Below, piece by piece: positions 14,186 to 27,830 of a stretch of 64,000 nt of DNA. A program made the translations under genes and the position numbers. Numbering within the stretch: position 1 is the stretch's first letter; each line of letters starts with the position of its first letter. This DNA is from Pseudomonadota bacterium (GTDB lineage Bacteria; Desulfobacterota; Desulfobacteria; Desulfobacterales; Desulfatibacillaceae). Below the pieces are notes generated by a model. That model made no database searches. It was not told the DNA's origin and saw only the letters and a program-made list of their open reading frames with translations. The stretch covers positions 3,851 to 67,850 of the forward strand of contig JBDRTO010000088.1 in the NCBI GenBank assembly GCA_043823985.1, written 5' to 3'.

Positions 14186-17100
14186 CTAAGGAACCAGGGT
14201 ATCCAGGAGACTCCTGGCCTTTTTCCCGGCATCCTGTTGCAGGATGGGAGGCAGGTTCTTCTGGATCGCATCCTCCAGGCGTTTCACGGCTTCTCCCTTT
14301 TTCTCCTGGATTTCCTGGCCCGCCACCTGACGCGCCAGTTCAACGGGGTCGATGCCGAACTTGGGTTGATCCAGAGTTCCCGTGACCCGGATGGGGATCT
14401 GGATGTTCTTGAGGTTCTTCTCCACCCCGGCCACGGTCACCCGCAAATCGCCCAACACGGCTGCGGAGAGGGTGTAATCCAGGCTGCGTTGGAGAAGGTC
14501 GGCCGCGCCCCGGCCGCTCACCCGCAGGAGGGGCGTGATCAGGAGCAGATCGTCGCTTTTGGCCTGGCCGCCGGCGAAGTGGACCGTGCCCGTGAGTTTC
14601 GCGAAATCCGTGTCCCGAACAGCCTGCTGATCCAGGGGGACTCCCTTCAACGCCGCCCAGGATTCCCGGATGAGCCCGGGCAGGTTCACGCCCTTCACTG
14701 TGCCGTCGCTCACCCCCAGGGCCAGGGTGCCGTTCAGGGTCCGGAGAATGTCCGGGGTATCCAGGCCTTCGGCCGTGAGGTCCGTCCGGACCGTGCCCAG
14801 CCCGGTGAGGAAACCTTTCCCAGCCAGGTCCGATAACAGGGGCCCCAACTGGACCAGCTTGATTTCATCCTTGACTTGAAGGCGGGGGCTCTTGCCCGTT
14901 ACATCGAGGCCTGCCTGGGCCAGAGTGCTTCCCCCATACAGATTCGAACGGGCCGGTTCAATGGTGAGTACGCCGTTTTTGGCCATCACCTGGACCAGGA
15001 CGTCCTTCATGTCCATGCCCGCCAGGGTGACCGCGCCGACTTCCAGTTTTCCGTCCAGGAAAAGGTTTTTGAGGGCGCTAAGGTCCGCCTGGCTGGGGGG
15101 AGGTTGTTTGGCGGGCTTGTGTTCCGGAGCCCTTGTGTCTTTTGGGGGAAGATAACGGTCCGCATCCAGGACGTCCGCCGCAAGCAGGAAGGTGTACCGG
15201 GGCGGATGGGAAAGCAGCACTCTGGCCGAACCCTTCAGGTGGGTGTCGTCAAGTGCAAGGGCGATCGGCTTGATCTCCACAGCCTGGGTGGAGCCTGTAA
15301 AGGAAAGCTCCAGCCTGGCCGCTCCCAGGGTGCCGGGTTCCCGGGTGTCCACGGCTATCCCGAGTTTTTCCAGGCTGTTCTTGAGGTTGTCCGCCGCCGC
15401 CCTGAGGGACCCGGAAAAGGTCAGGTTCTTGTCCAGGGTTTTGACCTGGAAGACGCCGGACCCCGAAATGCCCGCCAGGGTGAAAACGCCGACCTCCAGT
15501 TTCCCATCCAGAACAAGGTCCTTGAGTGTACCGGGGAGCGCCTGGCCGGGGGGAGCCGGGGCACCGGGCTTGATTTCCGAAGCCCCCTGATTTTTAGGCG
15601 GAAGGTAACGGTCCGCGTTCAGGACGTCCGCCGCAAGCTGAAACGAATACCGGGGCGGCTGGGAAAACTGAACCCCGGCCGAGCCCTTCAGCTTGGAATC
15701 ATCCAGTGCAAGGGCGATCGACTTGATCTCCACAGCCTGGGTGGAGCCTGTAAAGGAAAGCTCCAATCTGGCCGCTCCCAGGGCACCGGGTTCCCGGGTG
15801 TCCACGGCTATCCCGAGTTTTTCCAAGCTGTTCTTGAGGTTGTCCGCCGCCGCCCGGAGGGACCCGGAAAAGGTCAGGTTCTTGTCCAGGGTTTTGACCT
15901 GGAAGACGCCGGACCCCGAAATGCCTGCCAGGGTGAAAACGCCGACTTCCAGTTTCCCATCCAGAACAAGGTCCTTGAGTGTACCGGGGAGCGCCTGGCC
16001 GGAGGGAGCCGGGGCACCGGGCTTGATTTTCGAAGCCCCCTGATTTTCAGGCGGAAGGTAACGGTCCGCGTTCAGGACGTCCGCCGCAAGCTGAAACGAA
16101 TACCGGGGCGGCTGGGAAAACTGAACCCCGGCCGAGCCCTTCAGCTTGGAATCATCCAGGGCAAGGGCGATGGACTTGATCTCCACAGCCTGTTTCGAAC
16201 CGGCAAAGGAAAGCTCCAGCCTTGCCGCCCCCAGGGCGCCGGGTTCCCGGGTGTCCACCTTGACCCCAAGGTTTTCCAGGGTATTCCTGAGGCTGTCCGC
16301 CGAGACCCTCAACGATCCGGAAAAAGAGAAATCCTTGTCAAGGTCCCGGGCTGTAAAGGCTCCTGACCCGGTGAGACCCGCCAGGGTGAAGGAGAGCCCC
16401 TCCACGGCCAGGGTATGTTGGGCTCCGTCCATCCGGATGTCCCCGCCCAGTTGCCCCTCCACCTTCCGGTTTCCGGAAAAATCGCCGTTCGCCGTCACGT
16501 CCGCCTTCATGCCGGTCAAGGCATACTGATTGGAATCCGTTTGGACCAGGGCCTTCCCGGAAATCCGAATCGTGGAATCGAGCCTGGGTGTTTCGCTTTG
16601 TAAAGCAAAACTTAGATCCAGGTCCATGGGCGCGCCGGGCCGGATGCCTCCCAGGGAAAGGGCAACGTCCGAAACCTCGAACCGTTCCTTTTTCGCCCGG
16701 TCTTCCCAGATCACCCGGGAGTTGGAAACCTCCACGCCTGAAACCTCCACGGCCATGCCGGGCCCTTCCGCGGGCGCGGCGGAGGGAGCGGGGGCGGGCT
16801 CCACGGCTTGCCCCTTTGCGCCGAAATCCTCCCAGTTGGATCGTCCCAGGGCGTCCAGGATGAGGTGAAGCTCCATCCCGTTCACCAGGACCTTGCCCAC
16901 CTCCACCCTTCGTTTCAAAAGGGGCAGCAGGCGGACCCGGGCCTGGGCGGAAAAAATCCGGGCAAAAGGCTCTTGGCCGAATTCTGGAGGATTGGAAACG
17001 GAAACATCCTTCACGGAAAGCCCAAGCCACGGGAAGAGGGTCAGTTCCAGATCACCGCTCATGGTGAGTTCCCGGCCCGTGGATTCGGCAAAGGCCGTTT

Positions 17101-17218
17101 CCATCTGCTTCTTATAGTCATTGGGATCGAAGAACCAAGTCAGGTAAGCGGCCAATGCGCCCACCAGGAGCAGACAGACCAGAAGAACGGCGGCCAGAAC
17201 TTTCCAAATCGTTTTCAT
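14186..17218 (-). CDS. AsmA-family outer-membrane assembly/lipid-transport-like protein with internal tandem repeats
   Basis: The start at internal ATG 17218 gives 'MKTIWKVLAAVLLVCLLLVGALAAYLTWFFDPNDYK', an AsmA-type N-terminal anchor, plus 'LFPWLGLSVKDVSVSNPPEF'. The C-terminal AsmA_2-like region is 'GTLALGVSDGTVKGVNL'. Confidence 0.85.
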   Translation of the reverse strand: MKTIWKVLAAVLLVCLLLVGALAAYLTWFFDPNDYKKQMETAFAESTGRELTMSGDLELTLFPWLGLSVKDVSVSNPPEFGQEPFARIFSAQARVRLLPLLKRRVEVGKVLVNGMELHLILDALGRSNWEDFGAKGQAVEPAPAPSAAPAEGPGMAVEVSGVEVSNSRVIWEDRAKKERFEVSDVALSLGGIRPGAPMDLDLSFALQSETPRLDSTIRISGKALVQTDSNQYALTGMKADVTANGDFSGNRKVEGQLGGDIRMDGAQHTLAVEGLSFTLAGLTGSGAFTARDLDKDFSFSGSLRVSADSLRNTLENLGVKVDTREPGALGAARLELSFAGSKQAVEIKSIALALDDSKLKGSAGVQFSQPPRYSFQLAADVLNADRYLPPENQGASKIKPGAPAPSGQALPGTLKDLVLDGKLEVGVFTLAGISGSGVFQVKTLDKNLTFSGSLRAAADNLKNSLEKLGIAVDTREPGALGAARLELSFTGSTQAVEIKSIALALDDSKLKGSAGVQFSQPPRYSFQLAADVLNADRYLPPKNQGASEIKPGAPAPPGQALPGTLKDLVLDGKLEVGVFTLAGISGSGVFQVKTLDKNLTFSGSLRAAADNLKNSLEKLGIAVDTREPGTLGAARLELSFTGSTQAVEIKPIALALDDTHLKGSARVLLSHPPRYTFLLAADVLDADRYLPPKDTRAPEHKPAKQPPPSQADLSALKNLFLDGKLEVGAVTLAGMDMKDVLVQVMAKNGVLTIEPARSNLYGGSTLAQAGLDVTGKSPRLQVKDEIKLVQLGPLLSDLAGKGFLTGLGTVRTDLTAEGLDTPDILRTLNGTLALGVSDGTVKGVNLPGLIRESWAALKGVPLDQQAVRDTDFAKLTGTVHFAGGQAKSDDLLLITPLLRVSGRGAADLLQRSLDYTLSAAVLGDLRVTVAGVEKNLKNIQIPIRVTGTLDQPKFGIDPVELARQVAGQEIQEKKGEAVKRLEDAIQKNLPPILQQDAGKKARSLLDTLVP
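15030..16415. repeat. in-frame 453-bp (151-codon) tandem repeat array inside the AsmA-family gene
   Basis: Unit boundaries fall at 15256, 15709 and 16162, an exact period of 453 bp. Copies 15256-15708 and 15709-16161 differ at only about a dozen positions by eye. The flanking copies (about 15030-15255 and 16162-16415) are more diverged. Confidence 0.9.
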
Positions 17219-17475
17219 GCATCCCCCCTTGACTCGGGAATCACAGGTGTTCAAACCAGAACCCTTCACCGCAAAAAGGTAAGGCACGGGTTATGCGTGT
17301 CAAATCCCGGGCTGCCCCGGTATTGCGCGGTTAGCCGGTGTTGATCGTTGCCGTGGTCCGGCCCGATTTGGAAAAGAAAGGAGAATGTCCGGGGTTGCTT
17401 TGTGGATCCGCTCACCTGGAAATCGCTCATGAGGATGAAAAAGCGAGACTGAAGGGGAAACTCCAGGCGCGATTC

Positions 17476-19281
17476 TCAGAAAAAGAGCTCCAGGTACCGA
17501 GACCACTCGATGCGGGTCTTGTGTTCCCTGGCCAGGACCTCCAGGCGTGCGGGAGTGATCTCCCGGGCTTCGTAGCCCAGCTTGGCCATAAAATTGCGCT
17601 GCCGGGCCCTGGCCAGTTCCTGGTCCCAGACAAAAACCAGGTTTTCGGACTCTATGTAGGAGGACCGGAGGGAAAGGTTGAACGAACCCGCGGCCAGGAG
17701 TTCCCCGTCCAATATGAACTCCTTGGCGTGGAGGTAGGGCTGGGGCACGTTCTCCTCGGGCACTCCCGTCTTTTCCCACACCCGCACCCCGGCATCCAGA
17801 AGCGGCTCCAGGTAGTTCAGGGACAGGAAGTAGCCAGAAGACAGGCTCACTTCTTCCGCGGTCCGGGCGGAATTCATGAGGATGCGCACATCCACCCCTC
17901 GCAGGGCCGCGTCCTTCAAGGCGTCGTGGAGAAGACCTTCGGGCAGGACCAGGTACTGGCTGGTGGCATAGAAGGTTTCCCTGCAGGACTGGATGGCCGA
18001 GACCAGGGCCTGAAGCGCGTGGTATTCCCGGTCCCAGGGCCGGCTCTGGACGAACAGGCATTGCACCCCAACCTGGCTTCTGCCTTCCCCGGGTAGAATC
18101 AGGGCGGGTTTTCGGGGAAGGCTGGCCTGGGCCATTGCCTGCTCGTAGGAGCGCAGGAATCCCTTCTGGATTTCCCCCACAATGGGGCCTTCCAGGTAAA
18201 GGTCCAGGTCGCTCCACCGGGAAAAATACTGTTCCTCCAGATTCCGTCCCCCCACCACCGCTCTTTGGCCGTCCACCACCAGGATCTTTTCGTGCACGGC
18301 ATAATCCAGGAGGGGCAGGGCCGGAAGGCCGCCGGGCCCCTGAAAGGAGGCGAGCCAGCTGGGGTTGTCGTCCGCGCTCTCCTGCTCCTTTTTCCGGCTG
18401 GCCCATAGCCGGTAAAGCCACTGTTCAGTGCCCGTCTTCTTCCGAGCTTCCCCCTTTGTTTCCCGGGCCGCCTCTCCCACCACCCGGCCATTGAACAGGA
18501 CCACGCTGATTCCCGCCGAAACCCCAGCCTGGCGGGCGCTTTTCACCAGGGATTCCGGGATCTCCCCGGAGTGAAGTTGCTTGGGTTCCCGCCGGGTCCA
18601 TTCCGCCAGAAGTTCATTCAATTTGAGCCGAAGGGTCCCAATGGGGGAGGTGGGGTACTGGGTATCCGCGTTCAGGAGGATGTTGACCTCAACCCCTTCG
18701 GATGCCTTCCGGACCAGCTCGTCCGAGATGATTCTCCCGGCGCCCTGATTGCCCAGGGTGTACGACTGAAGGTTGATCTGCCTTTCCGCTGAGCGGATAA
18801 GGCCAAGGACTTTTTCGAGGGCACCTTTTCCGTTGTCCAGGAATTCCAGGGTGCTGGCCGAAGAAATTCTCGCCATGGAGGTTTTTTCCAGGGATCGGAT
18901 AAAAGACTCGTCCCCCACACGGACAAGGTCGTCGGGGCACTTGTAATTCACCTGGAGATGGCCCGAGGCCTGGCCTTCATTCCCAGCCGAATCCGTGACC
19001 ACGATGGGCACCAGGTACTTCCCCGTGTCCATCAACCGGGGGATGGACAGGCGGGTCTGGTACCCTCCTTCCCGGGTGGACGCCAAAACGTTCCCCTCTT
19101 CCCGGTCCATTTCCAGGCGCACGGGGAAAAGGGTCTGGGAAAGGTCCACGCGCACGGATTCGATGACCGCACCGTCCTGACCCGTGAAGGTCATGCAGCG
19201 GACGGATGCCGTGGCTTGGCCGTGGTTTTCCACCTGCTCGGGGTCTACGGATATGTTCTTGATGACGATCATGGGCTGCAC
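17476..19281 (-). CDS. phospholipase D / cardiolipin-synthase-family protein (two HKD motifs) with N-terminal beta-rich domain
   Basis: HKD motifs are 'HEKILVVDGQRAVVGGRNL' and 'HAKEFILDGELLAAGSFNL'. About 115 N-terminal residues look Ig/beta-sandwich-like, and there is no signal peptide. Start is GTG 19281 or ATG 19272. Confidence 0.8.
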   Translation of the reverse strand: MQPMIVIKNISVDPEQVENHGQATASVRCMTFTGQDGAVIESVRVDLSQTLFPVRLEMDREEGNVLASTREGGYQTRLSIPRLMDTGKYLVPIVVTDSAGNEGQASGHLQVNYKCPDDLVRVGDESFIRSLEKTSMARISSASTLEFLDNGKGALEKVLGLIRSAERQINLQSYTLGNQGAGRIISDELVRKASEGVEVNILLNADTQYPTSPIGTLRLKLNELLAEWTRREPKQLHSGEIPESLVKSARQAGVSAGISVVLFNGRVVGEAARETKGEARKKTGTEQWLYRLWASRKKEQESADDNPSWLASFQGPGGLPALPLLDYAVHEKILVVDGQRAVVGGRNLEEQYFSRWSDLDLYLEGPIVGEIQKGFLRSYEQAMAQASLPRKPALILPGEGRSQVGVQCLFVQSRPWDREYHALQALVSAIQSCRETFYATSQYLVLPEGLLHDALKDAALRGVDVRILMNSARTAEEVSLSSGYFLSLNYLEPLLDAGVRVWEKTGVPEENVPQPYLHAKEFILDGELLAAGSFNLSLRSSYIESENLVFVWDQELARARQRNFMAKLGYEAREITPARLEVLAREHKTRIEWSRYLELFF

Positions 19282-19298: not shown

Positions 19299-20111
19299 CT
19301 ATTCTCCCTTGCGGCCGGGTCCGGCCAGGGGACCGGGAGGATCCTCACCGGTTATGCCCTTCCAGGTCCGGGCATCGGCCAGGTGGATGAACACCCGGTT
19401 CATGCGTTCCATATCCCAGGAGGAAGGACCGTGGGGGTCGGGAAGGATGTCCGCCTGAACAGGGGGCCCCCACTCCATACCCAGGTCAGGCCCGAAGGCA
19501 GCCAAACCTTCGGAGATCCGGCCCCGGCCTCCCGGGGAAGTGCCCTGGCATAGGGATCTGTAAACCGAGTGCTTCATGGGAAAGGCGGCCAACTGAATCC
19601 CCCCGTGCCGGGCGGCTCCCAGAAGAGCTTCTTCCGCAGTCCTGCCAGAGTGCAGGGGGGTGGCCACCATCTGCCGCAGAGTCCTGTCCTGTCCCAGGAG
19701 CCCAGGAATCCAATGTTGGGGGGGGCAAACAGCGTAATCCTGGTCCCCTTCCTGGAGGGTTTCGGTCCAAAGAGCCAGGGTGAGCATGTTGACCTTGCCC
19801 GTGCCGGCCTTCACCGCAAAGGGATAGGGACAAGGATTCCCCCCATCGCTGTCGGGCATGAGACCGATCCACAGACTTTCTCCGGGATAAAGAGGCACGA
19901 ACACACCACCTCTTTCCCGCCAGGACTCGGGGAGCTTTTCCGCGAAATCATCCACGTGCCGGATGGGCAGTCGGCCGTTTTCCGAGGTTAGGAGGCGGGC
20001 CGGGGAATTTTCGGGACGCTGGACGGTACGAACCAGGAAGACCCTCAAGAGGGCCCAAGGCTCCAGGTCCGGATGGTAAAACCGCAACTCCTGTCCGCTA
20101 AGTTCAAGCAT
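19299..20111 (-). CDS. hypothetical protein (270 aa), no recognisable domain
   Basis: ATG start 6 nt after the XRE gene stop; its stop lies 17 nt before the PLD start. No catalytic motif recognised. Conserved-looking core: 'VFVPLYPGESLWIGL...YPFAVKAGTGKVNMLT...DYAVCPPQHWIPGL...LRQMVATPL'. Confidence 0.6.
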   Translation of the reverse strand: MLELSGQELRFYHPDLEPWALLRVFLVRTVQRPENSPARLLTSENGRLPIRHVDDFAEKLPESWRERGGVFVPLYPGESLWIGLMPDSDGGNPCPYPFAVKAGTGKVNMLTLALWTETLQEGDQDYAVCPPQHWIPGLLGQDRTLRQMVATPLHSGRTAEEALLGAARHGGIQLAAFPMKHSVYRSLCQGTSPGGRGRISEGLAAFGPDLGMEWGPPVQADILPDPHGPSSWDMERMNRVFIHLADARTWKGITGEDPPGPLAGPGRKGE

Positions 20112-20117
20112 GAAGAC

Positions 20118-20486
20118 CTACCACTTTCCGTCCCGAACCTCCCGGATGATGCGAAGTACCGCATGGTCCGGAAGGTTTTTCAGATCCCGGATGAGCTGGG
20201 CGAAAAGAAGCGGCCTCTTCCGGATCACTTCCTGGACGTCCTTCCCGATCTTTCCGCAAAGGGCCAGGAGAACGTCTTGATCCTCATCCAATTCCAGGGC
20301 CAGGAGCAGGATCTTTTCCTCGGACAAAGGAGCGTTCTCCCCCCGTTCCACCTTGGAAAGGTAGGAAGGCTCCACCCCGATTCGTTGGGCCACCTGGCGC
20401 AGGGAAAAGCTGCGATCCGTCTTCCGGAAGGATTCCCTCTTCTCCCGGATGTAGGCTCCGAACGGGTTTTTGTCGGTGTTACGCAC
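20118..20486 (-). CDS. XRE-family helix-turn-helix transcriptional regulator
   Basis: 122 aa. 'FSLRQVAQRIGVEPSYLSKVERGENAPLSEEKILLLALEL' is a classic Cro/C1-type HTH. GTG start with an AAGG SD. Confidence 0.85.
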   Translation of the reverse strand: MRNTDKNPFGAYIREKRESFRKTDRSFSLRQVAQRIGVEPSYLSKVERGENAPLSEEKILLLALELDEDQDVLLALCGKIGKDVQEVIRKRPLLFAQLIRDLKNLPDHAVLRIIREVRDGKW

Positions 20487-20503
20487 TTTTGCCTTGCCTT
20501 CAT

Positions 20504-20550
20504 GTGTACTGTGTGGTACACACTATACATCCGGCCAGACCCCTTGTCCA
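20504..20550 (-). promoter_or_regulatory. sigma70-like promoter plus palindromic operator of the XRE/orphan/PLD operon
   Basis: On the minus strand: -35 TGGACA (20550-20545), 17-nt spacer, -10 TATAGT (20527-20522). A perfect inverted repeat GTGTAC-N6-GTACAC (20504-20521) covers the expected +1, 18 nt upstream of the regulator start. Confidence 0.45.
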
Positions 20551-20670
20551 CCCCGGAATGTCCCGAAGCAGCGAACCTGAGTTCCACGACCTCCCCGGAC
20601 ACCTTATGATGCCACGCGGGGGGCCAAAACGCAATACAGGCCAGGCGGGCCGACAAGAAAGGAAATAGCC

Positions 20671-23202
20671 ATGATCCTGAAACCTTCCATCTTCCTTGGC
20701 GAGCACGCGATCCGGGCGGCATGGAACTGCATGGCCACGGGGCTTTTCCCCGCCCAGCCCGTGACGGCCCGGCCGGATTATGCCCTTCTCCCCCGTCAGG
20801 CATCGATGGTTCCGGTTTCCTGGATTCCAGGCAGGCCCCCGGCCATGGCCCTTCAGGACCTGCCGCCTGGACTTGGGAGACACGAAAAGAACATCCTTCT
20901 GGCCCTGACCGAAGCGCCCTTTTCCCTGTTCCGTTTCACCGGCCCGGCGGGCAGTGGCAAAACCAGCACCCTGCGGTACCTGGCCGGAGTCCTGTCCGCC
21001 TGCCCGTTTCCCCGGGCTAGGTTGATCGTGGCGGATTCCAGGAGCCTGTGCCTGGACGTGAATGAAATGAGCGAAGGGCCCGGGATGCTGGACAGGGTTT
21101 CCGGACAGTTGGCGGAATTGATTCTCCGCGAACTGTATGCCCAGGACTTCCCGTCGGGAGCCCATCCTACCATCCCTTTGTTTCCTCTTTCCCGGGAAAC
21201 AAAGGACTCCCTGGCCGCCTATCCCTCTCTCAAAAAGGCCCTCCGTCCGGTCCTCGGAGGGGAAAAGGGGTGCCGTGTTTCGGATGCAGGAGGGATATCC
21301 GGGCCTGTGGCTATGGAAGCCTGGAAAAGCGGGCGGGAACGATTGAAGGGAGCCCTGGGGTGCTTCCTGGCCGAGACCCTTTCGGCCGCCGGGAGCACCG
21401 GGCGGGCGATTCTGGTCCTGGACGGCCTGGAGGTACTGCCAAGTTTCCTGGCCAAGGGGCTGATCCAGGACCTCTCGAAAGCCATTTGCACCCAGGGGGA
21501 AACCCGTCTCCGTCTCGCTCTGTCCTCCCGCCCGGACGTTCATCCCCAAATGCCCAAAAGCCCGCCATGCCTGGATCTCGCCCATTACGCGCCAGACCCG
21601 CAGATGGAAATGATCTTCCGGGTGGACCGATTCCTGGAAAACCCCTTCAACATATTCTACTTTTCCAACCTGGACCAGGGCACCCAGAACCTTTTCCTCC
21701 AAAGTCTTTCCTGCCTCCGGGCCAGTTTGGTGAAGCCCAAGAGCCTTTTCAATTCCATGCTCCATTCCGTGGGGGGCTCCAACCTGGCAGCCTGCCATCT
21801 TCTGGGCATTCGTTTCTGTCTCTCCCTCTGTTTCTCCCGGGAACATCCTCCACGGATCACCCTACCCCAGCGTCCGGGGGACCTTTTGGACCGGAACGAG
21901 CTTTTCCAGGATCTGGAATCTCTTTTGGGACCCTGGGAATGGCTCCTGGGTGGGCCGGAAGTCTCCTCAGAACAGGTCGAATACGCAGGCGAGTGGCTAT
22001 CTGGCGCGTTTTGCCGGTGCCTGGAACGGGAGGAAATGGAAGACGAATCTGCACCGGGGCGGGATCAATCTCCTGAAACTTCCTGGGTTCTCCGCCCCGG
22101 AGCCCGCCACTTCCTCCAGAGTCTGGCCCGGAAACACGGTGCCGGAAAAAGTTCCCATGAGGTGGAGTCATGGGCCCGGACCCTGGCCCAAAGCCTGCGC
22201 CCGGGCCGGGGATTTATAAACCCGGATCGGGTGGGTATCCTGGTCCGGGGGTTCGAGACGGATTTTCGAGCCCGTCTCATCCATCTGTGGCTGGCGGCCG
22301 GGATTGAGGAAGAGCGGGAACTCGTGGAAGTCCTAGGCAGCTTTGCCATGGCCGTGGGTCGGGAGATTGCCGGGGCATGTGAGCGTAAGGGTGCCCCGGA
22401 ATCTCAAAATCCGGATACCCAGGTCCCGGAACCACCGGCGTGGAATGATTTTTCTGAGGCCGCGTTGGCGGCGTCGGGGCTGGGCCGGAGTGGTGTCGAG
22501 ACTTTCAACGCATTTTACTGGGGCGGGTCGAATCTTTCCCTGGCCGGATTCCACTCTCTCTGCCTGATCCAGGATGCGGGACACCAGGGAATGGGGTGGA
22601 AAGAATTGAGGGCTTCTCTCCAGGCCATGGGATACTCCCGGGTGCTGGCAGGGTGCATCCTCCTGGACCTGATGAACCAGGACCATTCCCTGGTCTCCCG
22701 CATTCCGGACATCCAGGAACCGGGCATGGGAACCCTGGTTCTCACGGAAGGAGGCCGGCGGTTTTTCGACGAAGTCCTATCGTCACCGGAATACCTGGCC
22801 TGGGCCTTTGAATCGGTGCCCTCGCTGCGCAGGTCGATCCGGCAGGCCATCGGTACCTGGAAGGAGGCCGTGACTCCCTGGGAGCCTGGCAAATGGATTT
22901 TGGCGGGTTTCCAGGCAGCTCTGGCCTTGGAGGGTGGATTGATGTCCCGAGTTGGAGAGGGAAAAATCGCTCCTTCCCCCTTCCAGGATGTGCCTCCGGC
23001 CGCAAAGCTCTTTTTGAAAATCTACGAGGTGGGCCTGCTAAGCATGGAAGCCTGCTCCCAGACTCCGGGAGAGCTGAGAAGGGTCCTTGCTTTAAAAAAC
23101 CAGATCCGGCAATGGAAATCCTTCCGGAAGACCGTGGCGAATTTTCTCCCCAAAACCCCGGGGCACCCAGGGGAATTTTCTGTCGGATCCAGACCCGAAT
23201 GA
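20671..23202 (+). CDS. orphan P-loop NTPase (STAND/NACHT-like), 843 aa
   Basis: ATG with an AGAAAGGAAA SD. Walker A 'GPAGSGKTS' (20941-20967), Walker B 'AILVLDGLE' (21406-21432), then 'RLRLALSSRP', reminiscent of the NACHT 'TSRP' motif. The long C-terminal helical region has no recognisable domain. Confidence 0.7.
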   Translation: MILKPSIFLGEHAIRAAWNCMATGLFPAQPVTARPDYALLPRQASMVPVSWIPGRPPAMALQDLPPGLGRHEKNILLALTEAPFSLFRFTGPAGSGKTSTLRYLAGVLSACPFPRARLIVADSRSLCLDVNEMSEGPGMLDRVSGQLAELILRELYAQDFPSGAHPTIPLFPLSRETKDSLAAYPSLKKALRPVLGGEKGCRVSDAGGISGPVAMEAWKSGRERLKGALGCFLAETLSAAGSTGRAILVLDGLEVLPSFLAKGLIQDLSKAICTQGETRLRLALSSRPDVHPQMPKSPPCLDLAHYAPDPQMEMIFRVDRFLENPFNIFYFSNLDQGTQNLFLQSLSCLRASLVKPKSLFNSMLHSVGGSNLAACHLLGIRFCLSLCFSREHPPRITLPQRPGDLLDRNELFQDLESLLGPWEWLLGGPEVSSEQVEYAGEWLSGAFCRCLEREEMEDESAPGRDQSPETSWVLRPGARHFLQSLARKHGAGKSSHEVESWARTLAQSLRPGRGFINPDRVGILVRGFETDFRARLIHLWLAAGIEEERELVEVLGSFAMAVGREIAGACERKGAPESQNPDTQVPEPPAWNDFSEAALAASGLGRSGVETFNAFYWGGSNLSLAGFHSLCLIQDAGHQGMGWKELRASLQAMGYSRVLAGCILLDLMNQDHSLVSRIPDIQEPGMGTLVLTEGGRRFFDEVLSSPEYLAWAFESVPSLRRSIRQAIGTWKEAVTPWEPGKWILAGFQAALALEGGLMSRVGEGKIAPSPFQDVPPAAKLFLKIYEVGLLSMEACSQTPGELRRVLALKNQIRQWKSFRKTVANFLPKTPGHPGEFSVGSRPE

Positions 23203-23238: not shown

Positions 23239-23973
23239 TCATCCCAGAAAGGAACGGACAAAGGATCTCTCAAACTCCACGGCTTCCAGGCAGCGATAGA
23301 ATTGTCTTTCCATTTTCCGGAACGATTCCGTATGGATGCGCCTAGTGCGACCTTCTCTGCACCGGACCGGACACAGGGAGTGCAGGACTTCGTGGTAAAT
23401 GACATATTCCACGAAAAAATCCGGCACGGCTGGACTGTCCAGCACCGGATGCACCCGGACGATTCGGAACACAGCGGACCAGCTTCCAAGCCGGATGGAA
23501 GACCTTTTAACGGATGACTTTGTGACCGAGGCCCACCCGATACGGATTCCTTCCACGCAAAGGCCGTGGACCCTGGCCACTTCGGCCAGGAGGTGAGCCA
23601 AGTTGTGGTGCCGCCCCTTGTACTCCAGGGCTCTGGGCGAGCTTTTCCGAACCAGGAGGTGGAAAAGGCCCTGGTTTTCCTTCAAAAAGGCGTCCAGACA
23701 GACTCCGCTGTCCGGGTCACCATCCTGGATGTAGGCCGCCAGGGCGTGAAGGGTCTTTTCGTCCGCCGCCCGGAAGGCGTGTTGGAGCCGGACTTCCAGA
23801 CCCCTTCCTGGAGTTTTCTTCACGGATAGCACAGAGCTTTTGTTCATGGTGAACCGAACCCACAGGGGCCGGGATATCAGAGAACGCAAACGTGTAATGA
23901 ACTCCGCCTCTGAAGCCATGGAATACGGGGGTTTTTCCAATATACTCGAATTTTCATCCATGTACCGAACCAT
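23239..23973 (-). CDS. DUF45/YgjP-like (SprT/WLM-like) HExxH metal-dependent hydrolase
   Basis: 244 aa. 'IRVHPVLDSPAVPDFFVEYVIYHEVLHSL...RIHTESFRKMERQF' matches the DUF45 pattern (HExxH followed by H..F). Confidence 0.7.
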   Translation of the reverse strand: MVRYMDENSSILEKPPYSMASEAEFITRLRSLISRPLWVRFTMNKSSVLSVKKTPGRGLEVRLQHAFRAADEKTLHALAAYIQDGDPDSGVCLDAFLKENQGLFHLLVRKSSPRALEYKGRHHNLAHLLAEVARVHGLCVEGIRIGWASVTKSSVKRSSIRLGSWSAVFRIVRVHPVLDSPAVPDFFVEYVIYHEVLHSLCPVRCREGRTRRIHTESFRKMERQFYRCLEAVEFERSFVRSFLG

Positions 23974-24303
23974 AGATTTCTATCAGTTAGCCGTGTCAAA
24001 TGTTACCAACGATTGAACGGCGGGGGCATTTGGCGTCCATTTCCTATCCCAAATACGTCATCCGGCCCAATGGCTCACCTCTTCTCCAGGAAAGAACGCA
24101 AACCCTCTTGAGGGCCCTCCAACCCATTTCATCCTTTGAAAAGCTCTCCACTCCGACTATACTGAATGTGTGCCCGAGCCAAGGCTCAATTCCCTACGGG
24201 CCGAACTCCCAAAAAAATGTTTTTTCGATGTTGAAAATCTTACTGACAATCTCCTCATGAAACAAATATTTGATTTTGAAACCCTTTTCTATCATAGTAA
24301 AGC

Positions 24304-24332
24304 TTGTCAAAGTGAATGGAAATCATTACTAT
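24304..24332 (+). promoter_or_regulatory. sigma70-like promoter for the 96-aa orphan gene
   Basis: -35 TTGTCA (24304-24309), 17-nt spacer, -10 TACTAT (24327-24332). A GGAGA SD lies 4 nt before ATG 24353. Confidence 0.4.
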
Positions 24333-24352
24333 AGGCCTACCCTTGGAGAATC

Positions 24353-24643
24353 ATGGAAGATTTAATCATCAAAAAATACGGCGAGTGGAACTTCCTGCTG
24401 GAAGGCCAGGGAGAGCAAATGCTGGTCTGGCCGTATTTTAGCGGACAGCCTTTTGCGCTGGAGGTTACCGGGGCCACCGAGGGACCGGGGCGCATCCAGT
24501 TCCGAAAAGCGTTTCCCTACCCCGCCAACTATTGGGACCGGTCCCGCAAAATTCTTTCCTGGTGCAAGCAGTTTGCGGCTTCCGAGAATCTACGAAAAGA
24601 AGAACTGGCGGCCTACCAGGCTTGGCTGGACAAATCGGAGTAA
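24353..24643 (+). CDS. hypothetical small protein (96 aa)
   Basis: Good promoter and SD context, and lower GC than its surroundings. No motif recognised. Confidence 0.45.
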   Translation: MEDLIIKKYGEWNFLLEGQGEQMLVWPYFSGQPFALEVTGATEGPGRIQFRKAFPYPANYWDRSRKILSWCKQFAASENLRKEELAAYQAWLDKSE

Positions 24644-24724
24644 CCCGCACAATACCTTTACCAAAGCCATCCCACCCCATTCTTCATCCAGCTTCTCCCT
24701 TAAGCCCTTTCCTCCATCCGCGAT

Positions 24725-25021
24725 TCAAGAGGAAGAGCCTTTTCCCGCCCTGGAATAAGGCCTCCGTGGGGGCCCCACGCGCGGCGCGCGCGCTCCTGTG
24801 CCCAAAGCCCGGAACCCATGCGCGGCCAAGCCCGCTCCCCAACCCAGGATCGGCCAGGAAAACCAAAGACGCTCGGGAAATGCAAGCAGGTTGATGGTCA
24901 CAATCACCATATTCACAAACAAATACAGAAGAAGATGCTTGTAGAAAACGGTTTTTTTCCGAACCCGCCCCCGGGCCTCCAGGAGGGCTTTTTCGTACTG
25001 CTCGTCCAGGGGATGTTCCAT
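24725..25021 (-). CDS. 2TM-domain-like small membrane protein
   Basis: 'RVRKKTVFYKHLLLYLFVNMVIVTINLL....WFSWPILGWGAGLAAHGF' follows the two-helix 2TM-domain pattern. An AAGGAA SD lies 5 nt upstream of the ATG. The Gly/Arg/Pro-rich tail may not be genuine. Confidence 0.55.
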   Translation of the reverse strand: MEHPLDEQYEKALLEARGRVRKKTVFYKHLLLYLFVNMVIVTINLLAFPERLWFSWPILGWGAGLAAHGFRALGTGARAPRVGPPRRPYSRAGKGSSS

Positions 25022-25291
25022 GGATTCCTTTCCCTTTCGTGGGTCGGCCCTGCGACCTCCGGGCGACCTTGAGGTTCATGCTAATCCCCGGGTCCGTGCA
25101 ATGCAACACACATGCGTGCGACCAAACTGAACTCCCTACCCTTCTCCGGCTTGAAAGACTGTCCCAGGGCTTCATTCCGGGCACTGAAATGCATTCCTTC
25201 TTGGATTCATGGAAAAGCCATGCTACATACCCCCATACTGCAAAATAGAACATCCTTTGGGAAGGCTGAAAATTTTAACCCTGTTTTGCCG

Positions 25292-25756
25292 ATGGGGGCT
25301 TGCATGGGCATTTTCGGCTGGTGGAAAAGAGACCAGGAACCCGATCTGGACGGACTCACGGGTATCGCCAAACTCATCGGGGAGGACATCGACCGGCTGG
25401 TGGCCGAAACCTTTGCCGCCTACCAGGAGCTTCTTCTCACCCAGCCACCGGGATTCATCGTGCCCGCCGTGTGGGGTGCCCGCAAGGACGGGGAACTCAC
25501 GGACGAGCAGAAATCCATCTATAAGAAGGTCGTCCCGGCCATGAAGCGGGTTTTGGAAAACCTGCGCTTCCGCAAGCTCTCCCGGGGGCAGGAATTCGCC
25601 ATTGATTTCCTGGTCCGGGGTCTCATCATCACCAAGATCGCCTGCCTGGTGGAGATAGGCAAGAGCAGGTCCAAGCTCTTTCCGGACACCAATTCCCGGG
25701 AAAAAGACGAGCAACTGGAACGCTTGAGCCGCATGGAGCCCCTGGGCCGGGCCTGA
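25292..25756 (+). CDS. hypothetical protein (about 150 aa)
   Basis: The ORF has reasonable amino-acid composition. Start is ATG 25292 or 25304 (GGGGG 7 nt upstream of the latter). No motif recognised. It is convergent with the radical SAM gene. Confidence 0.45.
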   Translation: MGACMGIFGWWKRDQEPDLDGLTGIAKLIGEDIDRLVAETFAAYQELLLTQPPGFIVPAVWGARKDGELTDEQKSIYKKVVPAMKRVLENLRFRKLSRGQEFAIDFLVRGLIITKIACLVEIGKSRSKLFPDTNSREKDEQLERLSRMEPLGRA

Positions 25757-25759
25757 TGA

Positions 25760-26869
25760 TCATTCCCGGATTCCGCACACCCTGACCGCGCTTTGGTTCA
25801 GATAAGCTGACAAACCCTTTTCCCCAGGCCAGAACCCCATGCACCTTTCCCATACCTCCTGGTCTTCCATGCAAAAATAGGCGGTCACTTCCGGTGCCAC
25901 TGCCTGTATTTCCTCAACCATCTCCCGGCACAGGGCCATGCGGATGGGCTTGAACACCCGCATCTTGTTGTCCAGTCCCGGCACCATCTCCCCCAGAACC
26001 AGTTCCGAACCCGGACGCCGCTCCCGGATCATCTGGCCCAGAGAAGGCGGATAGCGCAGCGTGCCCAGACTTATCCAAACCACCCTCTCCGACGGCACCC
26101 TGGCAAAAACCTCCCGGACCACCTCGCGGTAATCCTTCTCACATCCGGGATACGGTACAAGAGGATCGAAATGGAACGCCAGGGGATAGCCCCATTCCGC
26201 GCACCGGGCTGCTGCGGAGAGCCTTGCCGAAAGGCTGGTCGCCCCTTTTTCGTGTTCCCGGACCACCCTGGGGGCATTCATGCTCCAGGCCAGGATGGTT
26301 TTTCCCCGGTGATCCAGGCCTTTCAAGGCATCGATGTTCACAGTCTTGGTTTTCAGTTCCAGCACGGCGTGGTCCTGGGCCGCGAATCGTTCCACCAATC
26401 TGGGGGTCAGGTCCCAAAGAGACTCCCACACCAAGCTGTCCGTAAACTCGCCGGTTCCCATGCGTCGGGTGGCCGGATCCCGGGCTTTAAGCACCTGATC
26501 CAGTTCGGAAAACAGTTCATCCTGGTTGGCGAAAAGTTGCATGACCGGAGGGTGAAAATAGGTCTGGAGCACGCAGTAGGCGCAGTCCATGGGACAGAAC
26601 GTGCCCACATGAAGGATGGTGTATCCACAACAGGTGTATTCGCTCGTGCCCGGGCAGGGGCGAATGAAGCGGCCCTGGTTCCGGGTGATGTACAGCACGG
26701 ATTTGGCCGCAGCCACGGGGTCTGGCAAGGAAAGGACATGGCGAAAAACTTCGCCTGGACCGTCCACGAGTTCCACCGGGACCCCGGCTAAGCGTTGACG
26801 GATGTCCCGGGCCAGGGGGGTATCCTGGACCCGCAGGTCCACAAACAGCTGGCGGATGGCGGGCTTCAT
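25760..26869 (-). CDS. spore-photoproduct-lyase-family radical SAM protein
   Basis: 369 aa. The 'CPMDCAYC' (CxxxCxxC) cluster is preceded by 'CCGYTILHVGTFC'. Overall layout is SplB-like. Confidence 0.8.
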   Translation of the reverse strand: MKPAIRQLFVDLRVQDTPLARDIRQRLAGVPVELVDGPGEVFRHVLSLPDPVAAAKSVLYITRNQGRFIRPCPGTSEYTCCGYTILHVGTFCPMDCAYCVLQTYFHPPVMQLFANQDELFSELDQVLKARDPATRRMGTGEFTDSLVWESLWDLTPRLVERFAAQDHAVLELKTKTVNIDALKGLDHRGKTILAWSMNAPRVVREHEKGATSLSARLSAAARCAEWGYPLAFHFDPLVPYPGCEKDYREVVREVFARVPSERVVWISLGTLRYPPSLGQMIRERRPGSELVLGEMVPGLDNKMRVFKPIRMALCREMVEEIQAVAPEVTAYFCMEDQEVWERCMGFWPGEKGLSAYLNQSAVRVCGIRE

Positions 26870-26873
26870 GAGG

Positions 26874-27826
26874 TCATTCCCCCATCACCCGTTTCAGGGC
26901 CGGATTTTTTAGAAGATCCAGGGTGCGGGAAAGATGTTGGGAAAGTTCCTTTTCGGAGTCGAATTGCAGGCGCAGGACGTGGGTGGTGCCCTCGAAGAAT
27001 GGAGGCGGCTCCCATTTCATCCGGGGTGGGAGGCGCAGACCGGCCACCAGCCGATCCCTTTCCGCAGTTTCCCGGTCCACGGTGGGATACCGGCGCTGGT
27101 GCAAAATCGCCCGGACTCGGGTAGCAGCAGCGTTCTTGTCTTTTTCTTCCCGGATGGCAGCCCCGATGCCCGGGTCCTCCAGAACCTGGGCGGGGGAAAG
27201 GTTTTCCCGTTCCGCGATTTCCCGCACCAGGGACAGGATCTGGCGCTGACGGGAAAGGCTCTGGGGAAGCTCCAAAAACAGGCGGGCCAGGGCCTTGGCG
27301 TTACTTTCCTCCAGCCTGCCCAGGTCCAGAGCCACGGGAAAGGCCAGCGCACCGGCTTCCAGAGCTTCCTGGAGTGTGGCTGGCATCCGGCACAGGCTTT
27401 CCCAATCCTTCAGACGAGGAATGGGGGCTTCCAGGCCCAGGGCCCGGCGGACAAGGTCCTGCCGGGCGTCCCAGGCCAAATCCGGCCCCAGGAGAGCAAT
27501 AGCCCGGGAGGTTTCCAGCAGGCCCAGGGGCCGGGCAACGGCATTTAGGGAAACCGCCGCAAAGGCGCAGACCCCGTCCGGCGTGGACAGAGGAAGGACC
27601 ATGGCTGGAACCGGCGAGCATCCCAGTTCCCGGCAGGCTTCCCGGCGGGAGAATCCGTCCACCACCTGAAAACGGCCGTCCTGCCTTTCCCTCAGGAGAA
27701 CCGGAGCCAGCAGCCCCGCCTCCCGAATAATGCCCACCCAGCGGTTCTCTCCGTTGGTCCCGGAGATACGGAACGTGATGTCCGAGCCGGAAACTGTCTC
27801 CAGGGGGACTTCCTGGAACTCGGGCG

Positions 27827-27830
<4 letters not shown>
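26874..27830 (-). CDS. ParB/Srx N-terminal-domain protein with uncharacterised helical C-terminus
   Basis: '[32 protein letters not shown]' resembles the ParB-N box, with GERRxRA degenerated to GFSRREA. ATGA overlap with the purC stop. There is a 4-nt gap to the radical SAM gene. Confidence 0.65.

Follow-up and report, generated by a model that had tools for sequence, protein, structure and literature searches.

As Koonin and Aravind are said to have formulated it in 2000, the NACHT family of STAND ATPases combines a Walker A motif of the form GxxxxGK[ST] with an extended Walker B motif, hhhhD[GAS]hDE, whose aspartate is followed by a small residue and then by acidic ones. RdrA of the RADAR system, an AAA+/STAND-like ATPase of ~800–900 amino acids (aa) without an effector domain of its own, acts together with a separately encoded partner, RdrB, and is a precedent for a sensor and an effector split between two genes. 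ORC/Cdc6-type ATPases possess an arginine finger at the basal end of strand beta-5 (definitions in PMC12839542 and bioRxiv 10.64898/2026.09.23.753747), and the BrxC/DUF499 ATPases (HmaC, MtsA) serve as scaffolds or switches of defence in BREX and BR/MANTIS systems (PMC12839542; bioRxiv 10.64898/2026.09.23.753747). Here, we analysed a stretch of 64,000 nucleotides (hereafter, the window) from contig JBDRTO010000088.1 of the genome assembly GCA_043823985.1, affiliated by GTDB with the Desulfatibacillaceae (Desulfobacterota), and focused on a gene that encodes an 843-aa P-loop NTPase and is transcribed divergently from an operon for an XRE-family regulator, a 270-aa protein and a PLD-family protein. 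We tentatively regard the NTPase as an effector-less switch ATPase of the ORC/Cdc6-STAND type, which may be the sensor of a biological-conflict module and act on a separately encoded output. The gene and the parts of its product are located in the window as follows, with the supporting evidence in brackets.

20671–23202, forward strand: NTPase gene, ORC/Cdc6-STAND-like AAA+ (open reading frame, translation, orthologue, dN/dS)
20866–21585, forward strand: NTPase core, residues ~66–305, strands beta-1 to beta-5 (AlphaFold2 model, pLDDT ~70–90; AAA_16/AAA_22 matches of relatives)
20941–20967, forward strand: Walker A, GPAGSGKTS (translation, family alignment)
21040–21390, forward strand: helical insertion of ~120 aa, residues 124–240, between beta-2 and the Walker B strand (AlphaFold2 model)
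21409–21432, forward strand: Walker B, ILVLDGLE (translation, family alignment)
21505–21534, forward strand: RLRLALSSRP, strand beta-4 with sensor-1-like R287 (AlphaFold2 model, family alignment)
21598–21840, forward strand: helical lid, residues 310–390 (AlphaFold2 helices, family alignment)
21886–22392, forward strand: variable helical region, residues 406–574 (AlphaFold2 model, low confidence)
22543–22743, forward strand: predicted winged helix-turn-helix, residues 625–691 (AlphaFold2 model, pLDDT ~70–88)
22747–23139, forward strand: C-terminal helical bundle, residues 693–823 (AlphaFold2 model, family alignment)

In its predicted structure, the NTPase would share with archaeal and eukaryotic Orc1/Cdc6 initiators (1fnn, 2qby, ORC4/5) an AAA+ core, a helical insert after beta-2, a lid made of helices and, towards the C-terminus, a winged helix, and the lid motif of its relatives, G-T-N-[IL]-R, resembles the Cdc6 sensor-2 motif. 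It differs from them in the length of the insert (~120 aa), in the ~235 residues between lid and winged helix, in the extra C-terminal bundle, in a Walker B motif devoid of the DE pair, in its sensor-1 arginine, in having no conserved arginine finger, in the loss of the lid arginine from its own clade, and in being a bacterial protein with no origin context. In common with NACHT/STAND ATPases are the D-[GNS]-h-[DE] form of Walker B, an invariant [ST]xRP-like arginine, the lack of an arginine finger and a large, fast-evolving C-terminal half; the ATP-dependent sensor-switch logic of these proteins is proposed here for the NTPase as well. Unlike them, it is recognised neither by the Pfam NACHT and NB-ARC models nor by those of PADLOC, its winged helix is far from the lid, and it has neither a TPR, LRR or WD40 sensor nor a fused effector.

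The likeness to RdrA lies in the size and class of the ATPase and in the lack of an effector of its own; the Foldseek match to RdrA was weak (probability 0.47, E = 2.5e-2), the PADLOC RdrA model gave no match, and the partner of RdrA is a deaminase, whereas here it would be a protein with two transmembrane (TM) segments or the XRE/270-aa/PLD operon. The BrxC/DUF499 proteins resemble the NTPase as large multidomain ATPases of the ORC/Cdc6 clade with a winged helix-turn-helix, and a short relative of the NTPase (P0020) is encoded in an operon of that kind. The NTPase itself, in contrast, has no match to their models, no HmaC match in hhalign and no arginine finger, and the window locus lacks a methyltransferase or helicase.

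The gene and its family

The gene is an uninterrupted, ATG-started open reading frame for 843 aa, stop codon included in its coordinates, with an AAGGA ribosome-binding site 8–10 nt upstream of the start, and is present as the initial annotation had called it. A search of ~5.8 billion proteins returned only an 838-aa orthologue, P0002 (50% identity), and a fragment of the NTPase itself. The orthologue is encoded on a 7-kb metagenome contig (L001) that shares six genes with the window, in identical order; the two reading frames remain unbroken over 834 aligned codons, with a ratio of nonsynonymous to synonymous substitution rates (dN/dS) of 0.42 (NG86) or 0.20 (YN00), as compared with 0.09–0.22 in the neighbouring genes. 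Furthermore, an identical NTPase was encoded on five contigs, the three places shown being from three different samples. Since the orthologue aligns in an intact frame with these dN/dS values, and the identical protein recurs in several samples, the gene is real and under purifying selection.

Of the genes in the block, that of the NTPase evolves fastest, with 50% identity to its counterpart in L001 against 60–88% for the neighbours, and ~30–41% to the genes of two distant clade members (L012 and L013) against 44–90% for the neighbours. Within the protein, the helical insert has diverged fastest (30% identity to P0002 in alignment windows 122–218), and the lid is among the best-conserved parts (62–68%). 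No paralogue of the NTPase is encoded in the window, and the 5' leader showed neither an RNA structure (z = +2.0) nor an Rfam match.

When 1.84 billion representative proteins were scanned exhaustively by HMMER with a two-sequence profile (E <= 1e-3), 22 matches were obtained, collinear over the full length. They include a 685-aa fragment of the NTPase itself (P0001), the orthologue P0002 and two fragments with ~30% identity, one N-terminal (P0003) and one C-terminal (P0004); the remaining ~18, of 669–957 aa, are collinear from N- to C-terminus at 15–19% identity. Other searches returned few members or none: among GTDB species representatives the family occurred in just two metagenome-assembled genomes, one of them from Acidobacteriota; scans of GTDB genomes and of metagenomes with the close pair as query returned nothing, and those with distant members as queries 2 loci and 1 locus only. 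In a word-indexed homology search, the 22-sequence alignment recovered only two close proteins, and P0012 as query recovered four. The initial label "orphan" must be qualified, as the protein is a member of a real, though very rare, family.

Nucleotide-binding motifs

All three motifs quoted in the initial annotation are present and conserved in the family, Walker A GPAGSGKTS at residues 91–99, Walker B ILVLDGLE at 247–254 and RLRLALSSRP at 279–288. The Walker A–B spacing, put there at ~150 aa and called unusually long, is indeed so, with 154 residues from K97 to D251; it results from the ~120-aa, purely helical insert that follows beta-2 in the predicted structure. In the 22-sequence family alignment, E72, G96, K97, D122, D251, R287, L674 and G695 were present in 21 of 21 sequences, P65 in 21 of 22, and N613 in all 20 sequences having a residue at that column. 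E72 is part of a core motif, LGxxE, and the C-terminal bundle carries the family motif P-x-Y-[LV]-Q-W-A, with Y708 in 18 and W711 in 17 of 21 sequences. Judging by this family-wide invariance, the motifs are not chance matches.

The residue after the Walker B aspartate (position 252) is N in 17, S in 2, G in 1 and D in 1 of the sequences, whose position 254 holds D in 20 cases and E in one, out of 21; Walker B is of the D-[GNS]-h-[DE] form and not hhhhDE. The NACHT Walker A/B pattern is found in GPAGSGKTS and ILVLDGLE, with N, S or G at position 252 in 20/21 and D or E at position 254 in 21/21 family sequences. The SSRP sequence (residues 285–288) matches the [ST]xRP-like sensor-1 motif at the end of beta-4, its arginine, R287, being located at the tip of the predicted strand (280–286), which is the sensor-1 position. 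At the base of beta-5 (alignment positions 298–306) no arginine is conserved in the family alignment, a STAND-like trait. The lid motif of the family, AGTN[IL]R, is degenerate in the window protein, which reads GGSNLA: G369 occurs in 20/21 and N371 in 19/21 sequences, and position 373 is R (16) or K (1) in 17/21, all of them relatives; the window protein and P0002 have Ala there, and P0003 has Gly.

Predicted structure and affiliation

An AlphaFold model built from two sequences was unusable (predicted local distance difference test score, pLDDT, 43.5); with the 22-sequence alignment, the mean pLDDT rose to 70.1 at a predicted template modelling score (pTM) of 0.49. In this model, a conserved, family-specific N-terminal helix (residues 10–25) precedes an alpha/beta core with strands at 86–90, 116–122, 245–251 (Walker B), 280–286 and 300–304. 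The variable region 406–574 is deleted in a short subfamily (P0020 and P0022). Further on, helices at 625–639, 643–652 and 657–668 and strands at 675–678 and 688–691 form an H-H-H-beta-beta arrangement that we interpret as a winged helix; the assignment is a structural prediction with no sequence model behind it, and N613, L674 and G695 are among the conserved residues near it. It is predicted ~235 residues past the lid and does not adjoin it as in the canonical NOD module.

The regions left unassigned in the initial annotation, ~90 aa at the N-terminus and ~550 aa at the C-terminus, are covered by no Pfam, NCBIfam, PADLOC or PHROG family, and no effector or sensor domain was recognised, as had been stated: Pfam revealed no effector domain, no TM segment was detected (the top 19-residue hydropathy, 1.6, falls on the Walker B strand), and internal repeats were found neither by self-comparison nor with Pfam.

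Against the PDB, the top Foldseek matches of the model were ORC4, ORC5 and Cdc6 (probability 0.97–1.0; e.g. 7tji_D at 7.5e-3, and 1fnn_A), and not NLRs, the matches being weak (E >= 7.5e-3, TM-score 0.2–0.36). Lower matches included RdrA (8fnu_A, rank 8), SAMD9, the wheat NLR resistosome, MalT (8bob_C), NSF, FtsH and RFC, and a comparison with viral structures gave nothing meaningful. On the sequence level, no Pfam, NCBIfam, PADLOC or PHROG model matched the NTPase beyond Walker A-level noise; PADLOC-DB 2.0 mad8 (0.0069 for the window protein, 2.7e-4 for the best relative) was at P-loop level, and the PADLOC bNACHT, Avs and RdrA models gave no match. A PDB sequence search with the NTPase produced P-loop matches alone, and PDB profile searches gave Walker A matches only, apart from archaeal Cdc6 (2qby_A), the match to which spans Walker B to sensor 1 (E = 3.3e-4 with the family profile, 3.9e-5 with the domain-only profile). 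Among the 22 family members, sub-threshold Pfam matches were obtained to AAA_16 (11/22) and AAA_22 (10/22), and to none (0/22) with KAP_NTPase. Matches to KAP, ABC, PilT-like and helicase families were rejected, as they cover the Walker A region alone, and hhalign comparisons of the NTPase-domain profile with single sequences (an AAA_16 regulator, the co-resident HmaC and a classical AAA protein) aligned the P-loop only.

The assignment to P-loop NTPases of the AAA+/STAND assemblage made from the bare sequence is borne out by the predicted core, the invariant K97 and D251 and the AAA_16/AAA_22 matches of the relatives. As the top matches are to ORC/Cdc6 while the motifs are STAND/NACHT-like, and no model claims the protein, sequence and structure prediction together place it in what appears to be a very rare, so far undescribed family, a separate, unmodelled branch of the ORC/Cdc6-STAND AAA+ assemblage.

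Two narrower affiliations were weighed against this placement. The NTPase could be a genuine bacterial NLR of the NACHT family (bNACHT/Avs-like), as its D-G-L-E Walker B, the SSRP after beta-4, the plant NLR resistosome among its structural matches and the hits of single relatives to NACHT (0.0068), nSTAND3 (8.6e-4) and NPHP3_N (0.0025; 1/22 each) would have it. The window protein, however, was unmatched by Pfam NACHT (PF05729) at E <= 0.1 and likewise by NB-ARC, PDB profile searches returned no NLR chains, PADLOC bNACHT and Avs were silent, and neither an adjacent winged-helix domain (WHD) nor a repeat sensor or effector was found; the STAND NOD order, with nucleotide-binding domain (NBD), helical domain (HD) and winged helix in succession, is not seen, the lid being at 310–390 and the winged helix at 625–691. 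We consider this affiliation very unlikely: of the NACHT likeness initially proposed, the Walker B form and the SSRP arginine (R287, 21/21) stand, and a Pfam NACHT match is missing while the best matches are to ORC/Cdc6. The label itself was rejected for the window protein, which has no model match and no contiguous NBD-HD-WHD module.

The other affiliation is with ORC/Cdc6- or TniB/TnsC-like DNA-loading ATPases, which would serve a mobile element in replication initiation or in the choice of transposition targets. It would account for ORC/Cdc6 as the best structural and profile matches, for AAA_22 in 10/22 members and for a C-terminal winged helix as in Orc1/Cdc6. We nevertheless rate it as most improbable, in view of the missing arginine finger, the lack of any integrase, transposase or replication gene adjoining the NTPase in the window, the stable chromosomal synteny, the absence of the family from plasmids, phages and viral contigs, and the two-TM partners of its relatives, which do not fit such a role.

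Partner genes of distant relatives

Gene neighbourhoods in the wider family were obtained at ten distinct loci. In 9 of these 10, a small protein with two TM-like segments is encoded directly next to the NTPase on the same strand (TM segments called by simple hydropathy), upstream of it in L003, L005, L006, L020/21, L022/23, L024/25 and L026 and downstream in L002 and L019. These partners of 154–282 aa each have a pair of N-terminal hydrophobic segments plus a helical tail, and can barely be aligned with one another; a hidden Markov model built from them found no counterpart in the window. At L002 and L007/8, a large classical AAA protein abuts the NTPase gene upstream.

Two of the ten loci have a defence context, namely Hma/BR and PDC-S06, a sample too small for statistics. 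The P0020 pair, a 206-aa two-TM protein and a 669-aa NTPase, lies within an operon of the Hma/BR type-2 (MANTIS-like) kind (for the Hma/BR-type system, see PMC12839542; for MANTIS, the preprint bioRxiv 10.64898/2026.09.23.753747), where it sits between a DUF1156 methyltransferase and a PLD-SNF2 helicase (L020, 6173–8858; L021, 7325–10010); the operon matched HmaC at 1.2e-90, HmaB at 1.1e-83 and PLD_Helicase at 8.2e-78. The P0012 pair, with a 154-aa partner, is found beside an 894-aa AAA_13 protein (L005, 5304–7988, reverse strand) that matches the candidate defence system PDC-S06 at 5e-176, and transposase remnants occur near this pair and the PDC-S06 gene.

The divergent operon and its control region

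In the window, the NTPase gene diverges from a tightly packed operon on the reverse strand in the order XRE, 270-aa protein, PLD, the divergence from an XRE/PLD operon being as stated in the initial annotation; the PLD protein has two HKD motifs.

20487–20670, no strand: divergent control region (alignment with L001 and L012, promoter scan)
20118–20486, reverse strand: XRE-family helix-turn-helix (HTH) regulator of 122 aa, capH-like, first gene of the operon (HTH_3, HTH_31, PADLOC capH)
19299–20111, reverse strand: 270-aa protein (no family match)
17476–19281, reverse strand: PLD protein of 601 aa, candidate effector or lipid enzyme, two HKD motifs, Ig-like domain at the N-terminus (PLDc_2, 2.4e-28)
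24725–25021, reverse strand: two-TM protein of 98 aa, Pfam 2TM, PF13239 (synteny, Pfam)

An inverted repeat, TGTGTAC-N6-GTACACA (20503–20522), abuts the -10 element of the XRE-operon promoter, for which a promoter scan predicted TGGACA-17-TATAGT on the reverse strand, and a second conserved block (20606–20642) lies upstream of the NTPase start. Both intergenic elements are kept in three lineages, those of the window, of L001 and of the distant clade member L012. The operon itself is divergent from the NTPase in 3/3 clade members, down to ~30% NTPase identity. In L012 (GCA_019308705.1), the gene of P0003, which is 30–41% identical to the window NTPase over the aligned parts, faces genes for PLD (589 aa), a 263-aa protein and XRE (122 aa) in the layout of the window, and in L013 the gene of P0004 is followed, again in the window order, by a SprT-like gene that converges on it and by genes for a 99-aa and a 2TM protein. 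Identities of these distant clade proteins to those of the window amount to 90% for XRE (88–90% across the clade), 79% for the 96/99-aa reading frame, 58% for PLD, 49% for the 263-aa protein and 44% for the SprT-like protein.

The XRE protein matches PADLOC capH at 1.4e-8 and the Pfam families HTH_3 and HTH_31, and is 51% identical to the XRE protein of a cassette on an Euzebya megaplasmid. No Pfam, NCBIfam, PADLOC, PHROG or PDB match was obtained for the 270-aa protein family. Homologues of the 270-aa protein with 27–34% identity adjoin an XRE gene on megaplasmids of Euzebya, Bosea and Miltoncostaea; on a Bradyrhizobium plasmid, with no annotated XRE gene beside it, a homologue precedes genes for an M12 peptidase, a caspase and a trypsin-like protein, and another is encoded on a cyanobacterial (Kovacikia) plasmid. 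The cassettes of XRE and 270-aa genes thus occur on megaplasmids of Actinomycetota and Alphaproteobacteria with variable neighbours, among them an EEP nuclease. Positions of the XRE/270-aa or 270-aa loci are 19299–20486 (reverse strand) in the window, 6612–8038 in L014, 6625–8143 in L015, 6959–8382 in L016 and 6956–7837 in L017. The pairing of the two genes on several megaplasmids points to a mobile cassette of two genes whose neighbours vary and are conflict-like, and it is reminiscent of the CapH/CapP regulator pairs known from CBASS and other defence systems in the capH match of its regulator and in the association, across several phyla, of that regulator with a conserved second gene beside variable cargo. 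Unlike CapP, the 270-aa partner is devoid of an HExxH motif, and it matched neither capP nor a peptidase.

The HKD motifs of the PLD protein read HEKILVVDG and HAKEFILDG. Its best NCBIfam match was to cardiolipin synthase (1.1e-38, 133 bits, below the cut-off), and it scored 2.8e-15 (54 bits) with PADLOC DrmC. A 1033-aa AsmA-family gene (14186–17287, reverse strand) is located 188 bp downstream of the PLD gene and is also adjacent to it in L001; it suggests that the uncultured host has two membranes, and its adjacency hints at a function of the PLD protein in envelope lipids. The cardiolipin-synthase score and the AsmA neighbour together make a role in envelope lipids a viable alternative to an effector with nuclease or phospholipase activity.

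Proposed function

Given intact nucleotide-binding motifs, the STAND-like arginine, the lack of an effector, the pairing with two-TM proteins and the nesting of some relatives in defence loci, we infer that the NTPase may be a cytoplasmic ATP-binding switch protein without an effector domain of its own, and the sensor/switch subunit of a biological-conflict module directed against phages or mobile elements. A trigger would be sensed by the fast-evolving helical parts, or via DNA bound by the winged helix, and would alter the nucleotide or oligomeric state of the NTPase, which would then act on an output protein encoded by a separate gene. For most of the family, the small two-TM protein next to the NTPase is probably this output. 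The window lineage has no adjacent two-TM partner, and its output might be the XRE-controlled 270-aa/PLD operon or, less likely, the PF13239 2TM protein.

A sensor/effector link between the NTPase and the PLD operon is plausible as a hypothesis. It had been suggested initially from the adjacency of the two, and comparative data bear on it in both directions: the whole PLD triad is retained beside the NTPase in all three clade members, and the conservation of gene order extends beyond the triad and stops at the clade. Somewhat unlikely in our estimate is the wider proposal of a new two-part immune module in which the two-TM output has been exchanged, in this lineage, for the XRE-controlled 270-aa/PLD operon, the XRE and 270-aa genes forming a CapH/CapP-like cassette.

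Several observations weigh against these interpretations. On the side of the protein, every Foldseek E-value was above 1e-3 at a pTM of just 0.49, the lid arginine of the relatives has been lost in the window clade, PADLOC models matched no family member (0/22) beyond P-loop noise, and the family was not found in plasmid, phage and IMG/VR collections. On the side of the operon, it was present in 0/10 distant loci; no NTPase relative was annotated or detected at five plasmid loci with 270-aa homologues, and three XRE/270-aa cassettes tested directly had no family-profile match and no Walker A motif. The PLD protein resembles cardiolipin synthases more closely than it does defence nucleases, and its gene adjoins the AsmA-family gene. 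No adaptor (EAD-like) domain is shared between the N- or C-terminus of the NTPase and the neighbouring proteins, all scores being ~0 bits. Moreover, synteny in the clade exceeds the operon, with AsmA on one side and the SprT-like, 96-aa and 2TM genes on the other, and the window locus is embedded among housekeeping genes (pyrG, tex, purC, mdh, uvrBC, cysS). In view of this wider synteny and the housekeeping flanks, co-occurrence is no proof of coupling and could reflect vertical inheritance of gene order.

Correspondingly, the NTPase could be a conflict sensor independent of the XRE/270-aa/PLD operon, the adjacency being inherited gene order and the partner, if any, being encoded elsewhere, e.g. 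the PF13239 2TM protein. Besides the extended synteny, the absence of the operon from the ten distant loci and the plasmid loci without NTPase relatives, such independence would be in keeping with the two-TM partner as the family norm and with a 2TM-domain gene conserved 1.5 kb away. This gene lies downstream of the NTPase and its synteny is kept in L010, L011 and L013; yet it is two genes off on the other strand, and its product has no sequence similarity to the two-TM partners of the distant relatives. The divergent layout and both intergenic elements, on the other hand, persist at NTPase and PLD identities as low as ~30% and 58%, and we consider independence of the two units unlikely.

With no role in defence, the protein could be a transcription regulator of STAND type, akin to MalT/AfsR, which would oligomerise under the action of ATP and of a signal, either a small molecule or a protein, and bind DNA through its winged helix; its targets could be nearby genes such as the cardiolipin synthase-like PLD and AsmA envelope-lipid genes. 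AAA_16 is common in MalT/AfsR-type regulators, and is labelled by the search tool as 'AAA ATPase domain' only. The sub-threshold AAA_16 matches of half of the relatives (11/22), MalT among the Foldseek matches (8bob_C), the predicted winged helix, the chromosomal housekeeping context with conserved synteny, and a PLD protein with cardiolipin synthase as best match beside AsmA are all consistent with such a regulator; 391 of 589 STAND clades are not defence-related (PMC13581612). No LuxR or Trans_reg_C output domain was, however, recognised by sequence, the winged helix is predicted to be buried between helical domains, and the protein evolves twice as fast as its neighbours. The pairing of relatives with two-TM proteins, their nesting in defence operons and their varied contexts without a fixed regulon also disagree with a regulatory role, and the operon already comes with an XRE regulator of its own, whose operator is conserved. 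A regulator of this kind therefore seems improbable to us, though no more so than independence from the operon.

If the conflict-sensor interpretation is true, a previously unmodelled family, with no Pfam, NCBIfam or PADLOC entry, would be added to the STAND/ORC-Cdc6 ATPases of conflict systems. Its architecture is unusual in the large core insert and in a predicted winged helix far from the lid, and the family appears to rely on separately encoded outputs, a two-TM protein or possibly a PLD operon; should the exchange of partners be true as well, effectors would have been swapped between separate genes instead of fused domains. The gene sets amenable to experiment are the pairs of two-TM protein and NTPase, the pair in the Hma/MANTIS-like operon, and the XRE-270-aa-PLD/NTPase locus of the window. 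A second uncharacterised cassette, that of the capH-like XRE and the 270-aa protein, is flagged by its recurrence across phyla. If the defence interpretation fails, the NTPase would be a lineage-specific regulatory ATPase of modest interest.

Other features of the locus

The gene that converges on the NTPase, with 36 bp between the two stop codons, is encoded at 23239–23973 on the reverse strand; its 244-aa product has a C-terminal HEVLH metalloprotease-like motif and a weak SprT-like match (E = 0.01), with 44–67% identity within the clade. It is followed on the forward strand (24353–24643) by the 96-aa reading frame, for which no family match was obtained and which is 79% identical to its counterpart in L013, far above the neighbours except XRE. 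A 189-aa reading frame at 24684–25253 is probably an over-call of the 98-aa 2TM gene. The small reading frames past the NTPase lie in a dip of G+C content (0.545 at 24001–26000, as compared with ~0.61 for the whole window). Further along, the reverse strand carries an unusual pair at 25760–27830, just upstream of purC: a radical SAM gene resembling spore photoproduct lyase (369 aa) and, after it, a gene with a ParB_N domain (318 aa).

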